Shown piece by piece: positions 4,765-34,369 of a DNA stretch of 35,360 nucleotides. Under the pieces are notes generated by a model. It ran no database searches. It saw only the letters and a program-made list of their open reading frames with translations, and was not told where the DNA came from. The translations under genes and the position numbers were made by a program. Position 1 is the first letter of the stretch; each line of letters starts with the position of its first letter. Origin of the DNA: Candidatus Woesearchaeota archaeon (GTDB taxonomy: Archaea > Nanobdellota > Nanobdellia > Woesearchaeales > ARS49); contig WJKI01000057.1 of NCBI GenBank assembly GCA_014729195.1, forward strand, positions 1-35,360, read 5' to 3'.

Positions 4765-7176
4765 TTACCTGAACTTGGGACCCCAATCAATCTCATCAGA
4801 GCCCTTTTTCTTTTTCCTAAAACTATAAACTCCTCCAGCAATTAATCCTGCAAGAGTCAATATTATCAAGCCCCACTTGACTGGCTGTCCAAGACTGTCA
4901 AACAATCCAGTTGCAGCGCCAGTAGCCAACGGAACTCTTGGCTCTTCTTCAGGAATTTCCTCTACAACAACCGGTTCTTCTGTTGGTTCAATTAATTCAG
5001 AAGCAGAAGCTTCTCCAGATGGCTCTGGTTCTGGTTCAGGAGCAGGTTCTTCTGGCTTGATACCTGAATAACCTCCCTGATAATCAAAAGGAATGCCTTT
5101 GCTTCCGCTGCCGCTATCACTTGTCTGCTGAGCAGGGGAAACAACACTAAAAGACTCTGTTGCACGGTAAATAAGGTTTTCAGTTTCATAAGCCACAATA
5201 ACATCATAACTGCCGTCTGAATCAGGAGCAGTAAAGTCATAACTAAAATCAGAATTCTCATTTAGTTCAACATCTGCTGCACCATCAGGATAAGTAATAG
5301 TAACTATTCCTGCAACTTCTGAAGAATCATCCTTTGTAACACCGCCAGTCACTGCAATATTAGCATTTGGTTCAACAGAACCAGGCAGATTCACATTTAC
5401 TTCATAATTTTCAACAACAGTCATTTCCTCAACAACAGTGTTTATCTGGTCATTATTATCCATTGCTTCTACAGTAATATCATAATCTCCAGGAGTCTGA
5501 TCTGCAGGAATTGAAATAACTGCCTGATAAACATCATTACCCTGGTCTACTAAGGTTAATAAATCACCTTCAAAGTTAGCAGTAACCTGCTTGACACCGC
5601 TGATGTCTGTTACAGCAGCTTCCAAGGTCAAATCAGTTCCTCTGGCAACATAATTGATATCATCAACAAAAATATCAGGACCTGTCAAGTCTTCAGCAGT
5701 TGCAGTCCTCTGCTCTGACTGTGCAGAATTACCCAAATCATCAACACAAAGCATATACCATGAGAAATTACCCAAAGGAAGCATAACATTAATTGTAGAT
5801 TCTTCGCCGGAATTAACTTCCTGAGTAACAGGCTCGGCAACACTTGTGCTTACCGCGCACTCAATAGAATCATCATAATCATCGGTTACTTGAACAACAA
5901 AAGTTCCATGATAATCAAAAGAAGCACCATCTTCAGGACTGACAATACTAATTTCAGGAGCCTTCCGGTCAACATAAAAATTAAAAACTTCCTCTGCAGT
6001 ATTTCCTGCCTTATCAACTGCGATTACTGATAAGGTATTTTCTCCATCAGGCCACACAGAAGAGTTCAATTCCCGACTATAATCAACTGTATCAATCTCA
6101 TAATTATCTGAAACAGCAATATCAATCATGACATCTTTTATTCCAGAATTATCAGCAGGACCATTCAAGTCAATCATTGGAGGGGTAATGTCATAAATGA
6201 AGGAATCCTGGTCCTCACCTTGCAAACCAACAGCATCTGTGCACATGATTTTCCAGTCATGTGCTCCTTCACTGACATTAGCCTCTAATGCAAACGCGTT
6301 AATGCCCTCAAATGCTTCTATCTCCTGAATATCATTCAAAGTATCAATCTCTATTTCGCAGTCGAATTGGGTTGCTTTATTATCAAAAACCTCAAACCTG
6401 AACATATTGTTAGAATAACTATTATTCACAGGAGATAATAAAGTAACAGTGGGCGGTGTGTTGTCAAAACCAAAAGAACCGCTTATTGTTGTTGTTTCTT
6501 CTGCATTGTTTGTTATTTCAACTGTAAAGCAGGCAGTATCGTTTTCGCCGTAATTTGCGAAATCAGCATTTCCAGTGCATTCTCCTTCATTGCAGGTTAA
6601 GTTCACTTGCGTCGCAGGGTTTGTGCAGTCACTATACTCATATTGAACTTCTTTGATTCCTGTTTCAGAGTCAGAAGCATTAATCCTTATTTCCTGATTA
6701 TTATTATACGCTCTTGCATAACTGTTATTCGCAGGGAAAATATTGTTTAAAACAGGGGGAGTATTATCATTTTTGATTGTAACGTTTATTGAGAAATCCT
6801 CTGTTGTAAAGTCATCATAAGTCAAAGTGCCGGCAATAGTTCCTGCTTCATCCTGATTTACTAAGCCTGCCTTGGCAGTATAAACAAATAAGGCATTTTT
6901 GACATTATTTTCTACGGTTCCATCATACCATGTGATTTGCGAGGAGGATAAATCACTAGACCAACCAAGAAAATCCAAAACATCAATCAATTCCAAATCA
7001 GGAGAATTTAATTCAACCTGGGTTATTACATCATAACCTAAATAATTATCAATCTGCATATTGAACTCTGCTTCAACACTCTCATAAGTTTCTACAGGTG
7101 TTAAAGTCACTTCAGCTGCTAAAACTGGTGCAACCAGAATTAGTAATACTACCGCAAATACAAAGACATTTTTCAT
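4765..7176 (-). CDS. Acidic surface protein with tandem Ig-like domains and C-terminal TM anchor
   Basis: Signal peptide MKNVFVFAVVLL..AA; repeated D(N/I)TPP, DRKAP and DLTGP domain junctions; Pro/Glu linker; TM followed by RKKKK; start trimmed from 7194. Confidence 0.85.
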   Translation of the reverse strand: MKNVFVFAVVLLILVAPVLAAEVTLTPVETYESVEAEFNMQIDNYLGYDVITQVELNSPDLELIDVLDFLGWSSDLSSSQITWYDGTVENNVKNALFVYTAKAGLVNQDEAGTIAGTLTYDDFTTEDFSINVTIKNDNTPPVLNNIFPANNSYARAYNNNQEIRINASDSETGIKEVQYEYSDCTNPATQVNLTCNEGECTGNADFANYGENDTACFTVEITNNAEETTTISGSFGFDNTPPTVTLLSPVNNSYSNNMFRFEVFDNKATQFDCEIEIDTLNDIQEIEAFEGINAFALEANVSEGAHDWKIMCTDAVGLQGEDQDSFIYDITPPMIDLNGPADNSGIKDVMIDIAVSDNYEIDTVDYSRELNSSVWPDGENTLSVIAVDKAGNTAEEVFNFYVDRKAPEISIVSPEDGASFDYHGTFVVQVTDDYDDSIECAVSTSVAEPVTQEVNSGEESTINVMLPLGNFSWYMLCVDDLGNSAQSEQRTATAEDLTGPDIFVDDINYVARGTDLTLEAAVTDISGVKQVTANFEGDLLTLVDQGNDVYQAVISIPADQTPGDYDITVEAMDNNDQINTVVEEMTVVENYEVNVNLPGSVEPNANIAVTGGVTKDDSSEVAGIVTITYPDGAADVELNENSDFSYDFTAPDSDGSYDVIVAYETENLIYRATESFSVVSPAQQTSDSGSGSKGIPFDYQGGYSGIKPEEPAPEPEPEPSGEASASELIEPTEEPVVVEEIPEEEPRVPLATGAATGLFDSLGQPVKWGLIILTLAGLIAGGVYSFRKKKKGSDEIDWGPKFR

Positions 7177-32334: not shown

Positions 32335-32492
32335 CCCTGTGTAGCTCAATGGTGGAGCGTCCGGCTGTAGAAACATATCAGACTATAAGCATAAGATGCT
32401 AAGAATGATGATAAGTCAGCTGGAACCGGAAGGCTGCCGGAGATTTTCATAAACACTGTGAAAATCGGCGAATTCGAGTCCGGCCACAGGGA
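32335..32492 (+). tRNA. trnY: tRNA-Tyr(GTA) with two introns (32371-32424 at 37/38; 32441-32472 at 53/54)
   Basis: Acceptor CCCTGTG/CACAGGG + A73, D-stem GCTC/GAGC, anticodon stem TCCGG/CCGGA, T-stem GCCGG/CCGGC with TTCGAGT after removing intron 2; TTTATAAA at 32301. Confidence 0.92.
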
Positions 32493-33210
32493 TGTTTTTT
32501 AATATATTAATTCTTTCAGGATACTTAGTGTGCGCAGGACAGAAACCGGTTTTTTGCCAGAGAATCAATTTTGTTAAATGCTTAGGATTTCTAAAACCAA
32601 TACTATCCATCCATTTTTTTAGATTCTCAATACCATTTATATTAATGCAAAAACTAGGGTAATCCGCGGGATTGCCAAAACCAGTTTTCCTAATCCTTCT
32701 TGTGTATGTATAAGAAATGCCCAGCATACTAATTACTTCACAAATGTCTTGTATAAGTTTATTCGAAGCAAATTCTGCTGAAATTACCGGATAATAATTT
32801 ATTTGTTTATGTCTTTTTTTAAAAGTCAAACAGAAATCAGTATCTGCTAATCCTCGCATAAAAGATAATAAGAATTTCTTGTTTTGCTTTATTTTCTTAG
32901 GAATCTGTATTATTCTTGCTTTTTTACCGGCTTTTAATCCATTTTCTTCAAAAAATTCTAAAATAAATTTGAAATTTAAACGCAATCTCAAACAATCTTT
33001 ATTGACTATTAATTTCGGAATAATTCCGAATTGTTCTGAAAATAATTTAATTAGAATTTTGAAAAAATCTGGCTCGTCGATTAAATCTCCAAAAACTTCC
33101 ACTTTATAATCTGTTCGTTTAGAAGAAATATACTTAGTGATACACCCATCACCTGCTACAACTCCGATAAGATAGGCTGTATCTGAATTAAGATCGGGTG
33201 AATAAGACAT
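32416..33210 (-). CDS. Free-standing double-motif LAGLIDADG homing-endonuclease-like protein
   Basis: AYLIGVVAGDGCI and SFMRGLADTDFC motifs; WMDSIGFRNPKH. Confidence 0.85.
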   Translation of the reverse strand: MSYSPDLNSDTAYLIGVVAGDGCITKYISSKRTDYKVEVFGDLIDEPDFFKILIKLFSEQFGIIPKLIVNKDCLRLRLNFKFILEFFEENGLKAGKKARIIQIPKKIKQNKKFLLSFMRGLADTDFCLTFKKRHKQINYYPVISAEFASNKLIQDICEVISMLGISYTYTRRIRKTGFGNPADYPSFCININGIENLKKWMDSIGFRNPKHLTKLILWQKTGFCPAHTKYPERINILKNIPVAGLEFADFHSVYENLRQPSGSS

Positions 33211-34237: not shown

Positions 34238-34369
34238 GCCCCAGTAGTGTAGTGGCCTATCATGGAGCCCTGTCGAGTAACCTTTTAAAAAAAGGTTAAT
34301 CAAAACAGCGGACTAAATTCCGCCGTGCATAGAAAGGCTCCGACCTGGGTTCGACTCCCAGCTGGGGCG
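34238..34369 (+). tRNA. trnD: tRNA-Asp(GTC) with 59-nt intron at 37/38 (34276-34334)
   Basis: GCCCCAG/CTGGGGC + G73; GAGCC/GGCTC; CTGGG-TTCGACT-CCCAG; BHB helix CUGU/AUAG; TTTAAA about 28 nt upstream. Confidence 0.95.

Follow-up and report, generated by a model that had tools for sequence, protein, structure and literature searches.

A conserved kink-turn module in archaeal tRNA-Tyr introns, a candidate H/ACA-like guide acting on its own anticodon

The window analyzed here, a 35,360-nucleotide stretch of DNA from Candidatus Woesearchaeota archaeon (assembly GCA_014729195.1, contig WJKI01000057.1), contains a tRNA-Tyr(GUA) gene with two introns (Table 1). The first intron carries a kink turn (K-turn) and, directly behind its stem, a box complementary to the anticodon arm of the same tRNA. 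This module, which recurs in tRNA-Tyr introns of DPANN, Asgard, and Thermoproteota archaea, is the subject of this report. ARAGORN missed the gene in its default mode and called it with the intron option, and an Rfam search of the region returned nothing beyond the tRNA family except chance-level matches. The archaeal bulge-helix-bulge (BHB) is defined by two 3-nt bulges, a 4-bp helix, and splice sites in the bulges. Intron 2 shows all of these features, with a 4-bp central helix (32435-38/32467-70), two 3-nt bulges, and an 8-bp inner helix (32442-49/32459-66). In contrast, the BHB of intron 1 is relaxed: its central helix, CUGU/GCUG, consists of a C-G pair, a U-U mismatch, a G-C pair, and a U-G pair, and a 4×2 internal loop replaces the clean 5′ bulge. 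A relative of the same genus (L002) also has an intron at about the intron 2 position of tRNA-Tyr, but a much longer one.

Table 1. Features of the tRNA-Tyr gene in the window (positions count from the first letter of the window)
Feature	Position	Strand	Details
tRNA-Tyr(GUA) gene, two introns	32335-32492	+	Rfam RF00005, 36.4 bits; sequence read directly
tRNA 29-34 (CGGCUG), exon strand of the conserved alternative helix	32362-32367	+	Pairing in this gene reaches position 27 (32360)
U35 (32368, predicted target), A36, G37	32368-32370	+	Unpaired, with intron bases 1-2, once the alternative helix forms
Intron 1, 54 nt, canonical 37/38 position	32371-32424	+	Splice sites deduced from the mature anticodon loop and stem
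5′ strand of GA stem, 8 nt + GA	32373-32382	+	GA at 32381-82
C-stem hairpin of K-turn	32383-32403	+	C32383-G32403, U32384-A32402, internal loop, AGCAU 32388-92/AUGCU 32396-400, loop AAG
K-turn 3-nt bulge AAU	32404-32406	+	Read directly
3′ strand of GA stem, GA + 8 nt = 10 layers	32407-32416	+	
Box CAGCUG plus GA, 3′-guide-like element	32417-32424	+	Box proper at 32417-22
Intron 2, 32 nt, between T-arm positions 53 and 54, regular hBHBh′	32441-32472	+	Read directly; outside the module; internal contrast to intron 1

A preliminary description of this stretch had proposed a K-turn in intron 1, and direct reading recovered every one of its elements. The noncanonical (NC) stem sets UAUCA (32376-80) opposite UGAUA (32409-13), and the tandem GA at 32381-82 faces the GA at 32407-08, so that the sheared G-A/A-G pairs and the 3-nt bulge by which a K-turn is recognized are both present. 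This strict pattern (GA/GA, a 5-bp NC stem, a 3-nt bulge, and a canonical [C] stem of at least 2 bp) arose in 34 of 20,000 dinucleotide shuffles of intron 1; the intron alone is not unusually stable (fold z = −0.35). The 3′ strand of the K-turn also contains AUGAUGA (32405-11), which we take to be the box C consensus. The motif had been described as a perfect box C; it is indeed there, but it is not conserved, relatives mostly reading RAUGAAA.

The 3′ end of intron 1, CAGCUGGA (32417-24), is complementary over 8 bp, one of them G-U, to tRNA positions 27-34 (32360-67) and stops just before U35 (32368). The last four paired bases of the box also serve the BHB central helix as its intron strand, and the 3′ splice bulge contains the final GA. 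The BHB central helix, imperfect through its U-U mismatch, draws on the same bases as the 8-bp duplex, and the two are incompatible, as had been proposed. When the whole pre-tRNA was folded to minimum free energy (z = −5.05 for the entire molecule), the 8-bp duplex replaced the anticodon stem. The energy of the box-tRNA duplex was −12.2 kcal/mol in this gene, and the median was −9.8 kcal/mol. With the anticodon arm folded in isolation, the alternative fold beat any fold that keeps the anticodon stem in 72 of 85 sequences, with a median of 2.9 kcal/mol; these modeled energies suggest that the two folds lie near enough to interconvert. At its 3′ end, the intron resembles the anticodon stem's 3′ strand, and loci in which this obscured the intron boundary were delimited by eye.

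We searched 41 genomes of close relatives with the pre-tRNA. Most matches came from the 5′ exon alone; the relatives' tRNA-Tyr loci were therefore not selected for their intron. Eighteen loci were examined, and one, which belonged to another tRNA (L017), was dropped. The module consists of a 5′ GA, a hairpin, a 3′ strand reading RAU-GA, and, after exactly 8 nt, CAGCYG or a close variant that pairs with tRNA 29-34. It was present in 15 of the 17 remaining tRNA-Tyr genes, and one of these 15 has an extra intron. The two exceptions have 9 nt and a degenerate box (L015) or no intron at all (L012). Spacing from GA to box was 8 nt in 15 of the 16 intron-bearing genes, and the intron sequences as such differ widely.

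We then turned to a class-wide sample, 151 genomes from the phylum to which the window belongs, each with a completeness of at least 90%. The covariance model used for it treated the D stem, canonical anticodon stem, and NC helix as paired and left the alternative helix out. The model matched in 150 of 151 genomes, and in about 139 the best match (E ≤ 4.2e-10) spanned 88 to 128 nt, the size expected of a module-bearing intron. Ninety loci were fetched (the 30 best and 60 of the weakest), of which one was a tRNA-Asn. Among the other 89, all tRNA-Tyr, 85 carried the module; the remaining four (L235, L238, L243, and L249) have an intron of 13 to 19 nt or none. GA-to-box spacing in 82 parsed entries was 8 nt in 74, 9 nt in 4, 10 nt in 2, and 7 nt in 2, counts that still include about four spurious entries (boxes TAATCC, CAACGC, GAATAC, and GAATGA). 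No such motif was seen by eye in 15 other tRNA matches of the window's own genome, at least 9 of which have introns of 14 to 59 nt, nor in a tRNA-Asp(GUC) gene of the window (34238-34369) or in the tRNA-Asn intron of a relative (L248).

The module also reaches well beyond this phylum. A pattern scan over one genome per prokaryotic species returned at least 80 loci. Among the matches listed, at least 73 are archaeal, all in tRNA-Tyr genes, and 7 are bacterial, lie outside tRNA genes, and are chance matches. By record title, the loci belong to Woesearchaeota (at least 36), "uncultured Methanosarcinales" in third-party assemblies (at least 15), Nanoarchaeota, Nanoarchaeia, or Nanoarchaeum (at least 12), Promethearchaeota (at least 4), "archaeon" (at least 4), Hermodarchaeota (at least 1), and Thermoprotei (at least 1). 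The covariance model matched in 79 of 101 Asgard genomes (E ≤ 1e-4) and, at 1e-5, in 77 of 101 Thermoproteota genomes. Among the matches listed, the module was recognized by eye in 22 of 30 from Asgard, including K-loop forms with 9-nt spacing (L259, L268, and L280), with 8 lacking it, and in 16 of 30 from Thermoproteota, some with AA or GU for one GA. Loss of the K-turn and the antisense element from orthologous introns had been named beforehand as grounds for abandoning the proposal; instead, DPANN, Asgard, and Thermoproteota alike keep the two elements, which covary and stand at a fixed spacing. Conservation in hundreds of species excludes chance as an explanation.

Covariation was assessed in an alignment of 72 sequences drawn from the pattern scan and the relatives. 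Because the scan pattern fixed GA, AUGA, the spacing, and the box and left NC-stem complementarity free, covariation of the NC stem is independent of that selection. All of the distal six pairs of the GA stem (6/6) change on both sides, with 88.2% of cells paired. The covariation score of the whole tested structure was 0.582, compared with 0.187 in shuffles (0 of 500 reached 0.582) and 0.07 to 0.13 with slid partners. Ungapped scoring of the NC stem looked poor; its 5′ strand is usually one base shorter than its 3′ strand (among 89 sequences, the 5′ strand has 7 nt in 66 and 8 nt in 20, whereas every 3′ strand of that set has 8 nt). When the strands were aligned with bulges allowed, the mean was 5.15 for true strands versus 2.96 when 3′ strands were exchanged between sequences. 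Among the 82 parsed relatives, the 3′-strand GA and the RAU bulge are kept, the bulge reading AAU in 34, GAU in 33, CAU in 5, and UAU in 3; in a few Asgard and Thermoproteota variants, AA or GU replaces one GA. The closing (−1) pair of the C stem is paired in 76 of 85 relatives, with five pair types, versus 29 of 85 when the partner is slid by one. Pairing is poor at the next two positions, −2 (48/85) and −3 (39/85), which makes the C stem irregular. We conclude that the intron hairpin is a K-turn with a covarying NC stem and a kept C-stem closing pair, and thus a predicted L7Ae site. The C stem follows one layout (the kept closing pair, two poorly paired positions, and then a helix) and varies little in total length, from 16 to 21 nt in most DPANN and from 10 to 11 nt in Asgard.

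The antisense box behaves as more than a by-product of splicing. Pairing potential among the 82 parsed sequences is high at tRNA positions 34 (79/82), 33 (82/82), 32 (82/82), 31 (78/82), 30 (67/82), and 29 (65/82) and falls to chance level at 28 (42/82) and 27 (31/82); the conserved duplex is therefore 6 bp (29-34), and the 8-bp antisense that had been described holds for this gene but not for the family. The BHB register makes no use of box positions 1 (C/U), 2 (A), and 3 (G), and yet these bases hardly vary. Box position 5 lies opposite U33 in that register and opposite G30 in the alternative one. Among 72 sequences whose tRNA has G30, 63 have a C or U at box position 5, which pairs only with G30, not U33, whereas tRNA-Tyr introns without a K-turn mostly place A or G opposite U33 (L235, L238, and L263-266, but not L243). 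A tail of 6 to 17 nt follows the box in 20 of the 82 parsed entries. In those longer tails that were read by eye, a second, separate strand makes a good BHB helix, and the box keeps its fixed distance to the K-turn (L111 of Thermoprotei, L011, L010, L208-209, L240-244, and the Asgard group L270-278). Because it persists beside a separate BHB strand in many lineages, the box is an element of its own. In the same Asgard group (TCTGG), U29 of the tRNA is matched by a final A in the box, a compensatory change, and an A also stands opposite C32. RNAalifold selected the 29-34 helix in the 72-sequence alignment, a weak result because that alignment was selected for the box. Together, these comparisons favor the view that the intron-anticodon duplex is a separate, selected helix.

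Four tRNA-Tyr genes of relatives (L241, L247, L250, and L016) have, besides the K-turn intron at 37/38, an extra intron of about 20 to 26 nt between U35 and A36, and these introns adjoin the proposed target base.

We compared the module with archaeal H/ACA guides as described in the literature. The GA stem of these guides runs from the pocket-closing pair to the second G:A pair of the K-turn (Toffano-Nioche et al., PMC4652768). It measures exactly 10 pairs or stacked layers in all complete H/ACA ribonucleoprotein (RNP) crystal structures and in 14 of 15 productive P. abyssi guides, a changed length is deleterious and abolishes activity, and stacked bulged bases can complete the count; the 3′ guide has 5 to 6 nt, and the ACA lies 14 to 15 nt from the closing pair (PMC4652768). 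In the intron, GA plus 8 nt on the 3′ strand likewise make 10 layers, both in this gene and in 74 of 82 parsed sequences. Directly 3′ of this stem, the box CAGCYG pairs with tRNA 29-34 as a 3′ guide would, and U35 and A36 follow unpaired, like the "UN" of an H/ACA target. By this analogy, the module resembles the upper half of an H/ACA guide-substrate complex, with its own anticodon loop as the substrate.

Guides of such reduced form have precedents. Guides without a lower stem and ACA have been described in Pyrobaculum, and ACA-less, stem-less guides function in vivo and in vitro in S. islandicus, where one (sR148) has a 3′ guide only, forming a 6-bp duplex (PMC11077068). Two of these atypical guides are pseudouridylated by Cbf5 in their own 5′ flank through 2 to 4 bp with their own 3′ guide, and this self-modification depends less on Gar1 and L7Ae (PMC11077068). 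Proteins of P. furiosus reportedly work with atypical guides as well. Majumder et al. (PMC7075261) report that a typical unpaired "UN" can do without the ACA and that pairing on the pocket's 3′ side counts for more. Because ACA-less H/ACA RNAs without a lower stem have been reported to function, a missing ACA box is no longer disqualifying. Like the module, the atypical guides of Pyrobaculum and S. islandicus combine a single K-turn hairpin, a 10-layer GA stem, and a guide flanking the stem; they are, however, free-standing small RNAs (sRNAs) acting mainly in trans on rRNA, whereas the module lies inside a tRNA intron, has the anticodon loop as its 5′ flank, and competes with the splicing fold.

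Pseudouridine-35 (ψ35) of pre-tRNA-Tyr is an established H/ACA target in Sulfolobales, where it is guided in trans (PMC2651775; PMC11077068). The responsible Sso1/sR115 family of Sulfolobales and Aeropyrum shares with the module the target (U35 of an intron-containing pre-tRNA-Tyr), a 3′ guide complementary to the anticodon stem-loop immediately 5′ of U35, and a K-turn. It differs in that it acts in trans, possesses a lower stem and, at 14 nt from the target, an ACA box, uses a 5′ guide to pair with the intron, and is tied to a defective Pus7, whereas module-bearing genomes mostly have Pus7. In eukaryotes, the tRNA-Tyr intron is likewise kept and tied to modification of U35, but by the protein-only enzyme Pus7, with neither K-turn nor guide ruler. 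Euryarchaeal pre-tRNA-Trp introns carry box C/D guides. Such an intron likewise carries a guide element with an L7Ae K-turn, and this element pairs with the exons around it in a fold that excludes the BHB; in contrast to the module, it works with Nop5-fibrillarin in 2′-O-methylation, belongs to another tRNA, and sits in a much longer intron with a full C/D/C′/D′ set. A full-text literature search, with subscription journals largely outside it, returned no published K-turn or H/ACA-like element in a tRNA-Tyr intron.

The preliminary description had called for a look at the genome for Pus7/TruD, Cbf5, and L7Ae, and all three genes are present. L7Ae and Cbf5 are accompanied by Nop10, Nop5, fibrillarin, and EndA, and the TruD/Pus7 protein (306 residues) keeps, by eye, the motif IIIa lysine and the motif II aspartate with its basic pair. 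Nop10 was matched in 148 of 151 class genomes, and Cbf5 was found in all five genomes checked because they lack the module or a Nop10 match; there is therefore no usable pattern of co-loss of H/ACA proteins with the module. All five genomes of one family (f64; 96 to 99% complete) carry the module, and neither the Pfam family model nor a search with the own protein detected TruD/Pus7 in them, which indicates that the module can be kept without Pus7. TruD/Pus7 of the class comes in two sizes, about 300 to 350 aa with a reduced insertion domain and about 375 to 420 aa; some genomes have both, and the genome of the window has only the short one. At least two genomes without the module (G092 and G120) have the long form, as do several with degenerate modules, an association confounded by kinship.

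On balance, we think it probable that intron 1 encodes a minimal, atypical H/ACA-like guide that acts in cis with L7Ae, Cbf5, and Nop10 to make ψ35 and then yields to the splicing fold. The intron would fold into the K-turn hairpin and bind L7Ae, its NC stem spanning 10 layers made of the tandem G-A pairs and 8 further layers. The 6-nt box CAGCYG, directly 3′ of this stem, would pair with tRNA 29-34, melting the top three pairs of the anticodon stem, and the duplex would stack under the K-turn stem. U35 and A36 would be left unpaired at the base of the stem, in the way that an H/ACA RNP holds its target "UN," and we infer that Cbf5 would be recruited there and that L7Ae, Nop10, and Cbf5 would then convert U35 to ψ35. 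Finally, the RNA would refold into the mutually exclusive BHB, from which EndA would remove the intron. A modify-then-splice switch had been suggested before with either Cbf5 or Nop5/fibrillarin as the partner. The 10-layer GA stem, the 6-nt 3′ guide, and the adjacent U fit Cbf5; the geometry does not fit Nop5/fibrillarin. Atypical H/ACA-like guides are already known, and we lean toward regarding the intron-borne form that targets ψ35 in its own host as a new variant of them. The underlying observation, a widespread and strongly constrained feature, is confirmed.

Several points weigh against this interpretation. There is no 5′ guide: only 2 nt separate G37 from the stem in 52 of 85 sequences, and the target itself is the 5′ strand of the "pocket." There is no lower stem and no ACA/ANA box. 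At 14 nt from the stem, with a 2-nt tail, lies A44-G45-G46, and this distance to 44-46 is not kept in the variants with longer tails of 6 to 17 nt (20/82); the earlier statement that no correctly spaced ACA is visible and that this is not a standard H/ACA RNA thus stands. With its 5′ strand of 7 nt in 66 of 89 sequences, the GA stem has a strict count of 10 layers only on the 3′ strand and needs a bulged base stacked in; moreover, some K-loop forms have a spacing of 9 nt, and one family has 7 nt. About 20% of sequences have no pair at 30 or 29. Where the tRNA has C30, the box has A in five of seven sequences (four from one genus), which is not compensatory, and G in two, and several lineages read CAGCAG or CAGCGG, which favors the BHB register. 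Other altered boxes (CAACCA, CAGCAU) occur in further lineages. Gar1 was not found in the own genome, and PF04410 exceeded its cutoff in none of 151 class genomes, a model that also misses the S. acidocaldarius control; atypical H/ACA RNPs are reported to need Gar1 for external substrates and less so for self-modification (PMC11077068). Because TruD/Pus7 is widespread (138 of 151 class genomes) and the own copy retains its catalytic motifs by eye, ψ35 could form without any guide. A classic H/ACA guide RNA was rejected as a candidate, being without the ACA box, the lower stem (7 to 9 bp), and the 5′ guide.

The mutual exclusivity of the two folds and their closeness in energy, with the alternative fold better in 72 of 85 sequences, would also suit a gate on folding or splicing that involves no modification. 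The K-turn and the box would hold a non-spliceable fold until L7Ae or another factor binds or leaves, and removal of the intron would thereby be timed or quality-checked. The poor BHB of intron 1 beside the regular BHB of intron 2 in the same gene is consistent with such a gate. According to a preprint, kink-loop RNAs located in human introns control how their host is spliced. A gate leaves unexplained, however, why the stem is fixed at exactly the H/ACA length and why the duplex has to end at G34 beside U-A. It is also disfavored by tRNA-Tyr introns of the same clades that lack the K-turn and splice with ordinary BHB helices. We know of no archaeal splicing factor that reads a K-turn, and we consider a pure gate unlikely.

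The excised intron, linear or circular, might instead act mainly in trans on another RNA, for instance, 16S rRNA at UGGCUG-U-A or other tRNA-Tyr molecules. It has the architecture of the atypical guides, including the one with a 3′ guide only, and both 16S copies of its own genome hold UGGCUGUA at about E. coli position 813 (a placement counted from the 515F site). However, a 7-nt match would turn up by chance in about one of ten rRNAs of 1.5 kb, and in at least one lineage the box follows a change in the tRNA (U29 paired by A in the Asgard TCTGG group). A search for the 16S site pattern in five Asgard genomes gave no match, probably because the rRNA is unassembled there. Action in trans seems improbable to us. 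The two 16S-like loci lie on contigs C19 (about 5871-6170) and C46 (about 958-1383), each with UGGCUGUA complementary to the intron box. In C46, 515F and UGGCUGUA lie about 126 nt farther apart than in C19, and one of the 16S copies may thus carry an insertion or intron.

The alternative helix could also present U35 to Pus7/TruD by copying the context of U13 (positions −2 and −1 paired, followed by an unpaired U-A-R), with the K-turn as mere architecture. TruD occurs in 138 of 151 genomes, the own enzyme looks intact, and eukaryotic Pus7 makes ψ35 in an intron-dependent manner and prefers U followed by A. Against this, family f64 keeps the module in 5 of 5 genomes without detectable TruD, P. 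abyssi Pus7 requires no intron, and neither the K-turn nor the 10-layer ruler is explained; the chance that presentation to Pus7 accounts for the module is slim. Least credible is a box C/D-type half guide recruiting Nop5-fibrillarin for 2′-O-methylation in the anticodon loop, which was rejected on geometry: a box C/D guide has C (RUGAUGA), D (CUGA), and a free guide of about 12 nt whose target is the fifth base upstream of D/D′, and although the Nop5 and fibrillarin genes, the AUGAUGA on the 3′ strand, and the C/D guides of tRNA-Trp introns lend it some color, the AUGAUGA match is not conserved, no D box follows the intron box at the spacing needed, the strands flanking the K-turn pair with each other for 8 further layers rather than being free, and the N+5 rule applied to the D′-like strand points to an intron base.

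If the cis-acting H/ACA-like reading is correct, intron 1 would be the first known case of a tRNA intron that houses an H/ACA-type guide directed at its own host and would parallel, for pseudouridylation, the C/D guide of the tRNA-Trp intron. The persistence of introns in so many tRNA-Tyr genes would have a functional explanation, and the range of atypical H/ACA guides, so far two crenarchaeal genera, would grow to include DPANN, Asgard, and other Thermoproteota. The module would also illustrate how some 50 nt of RNA can be enough for a very small genome to secure the modification of an anticodon, and it would constitute a compact natural RNA switch that passes from a modification fold to a splicing fold. 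Should ψ35 turn out not to be its purpose, a K-turn whose distance from the anticodon stays invariant across hundreds of species would still be a strongly selected and unexplained part of tRNA maturation. A broader scenario, which taken as a whole we hold to be rather unlikely, would make the tRNA-Tyr intron the original home of RNA-guided ψ35, with a self-targeting module that predates the split of DPANN, Asgard, and TACK. The stubborn retention of the tRNA-Tyr intron, including in eukaryotes, where ψ35 is still intron dependent, would then be explained, the free-standing ψ35 guide of Sulfolobales would have escaped from the intron, and the excised intron might moonlight as a trans guide for 16S UGGCUG-U-A.

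Some further features of the window and its genome were recorded along the way. A 264-aa open reading frame on the minus strand (32416-33210, a mechanical call) overlaps the 3′ part of the tRNA-Tyr gene; if it is a real gene, its start is probably internal. The tRNA-Asp(GUC) gene mentioned above (34238-34369, plus strand; identified by eye) is the second intron-bearing tRNA, with an intron of about 59 nt that consists of two hairpins. It scored 43.2 bits in a local Rfam search and was absent from the whole-window search at gathering thresholds. A naive scan of the genome for classic H/ACA hairpins was unspecific (61 loci versus 37 in shuffled sequence). One of its hits, at 5116-5193 on the plus strand of contig C13, is a candidate classic H/ACA sRNA: the hairpin is GC-rich and combines a K-turn with an internal loop, a lower stem of 7 bp, and a 3′ ACA.

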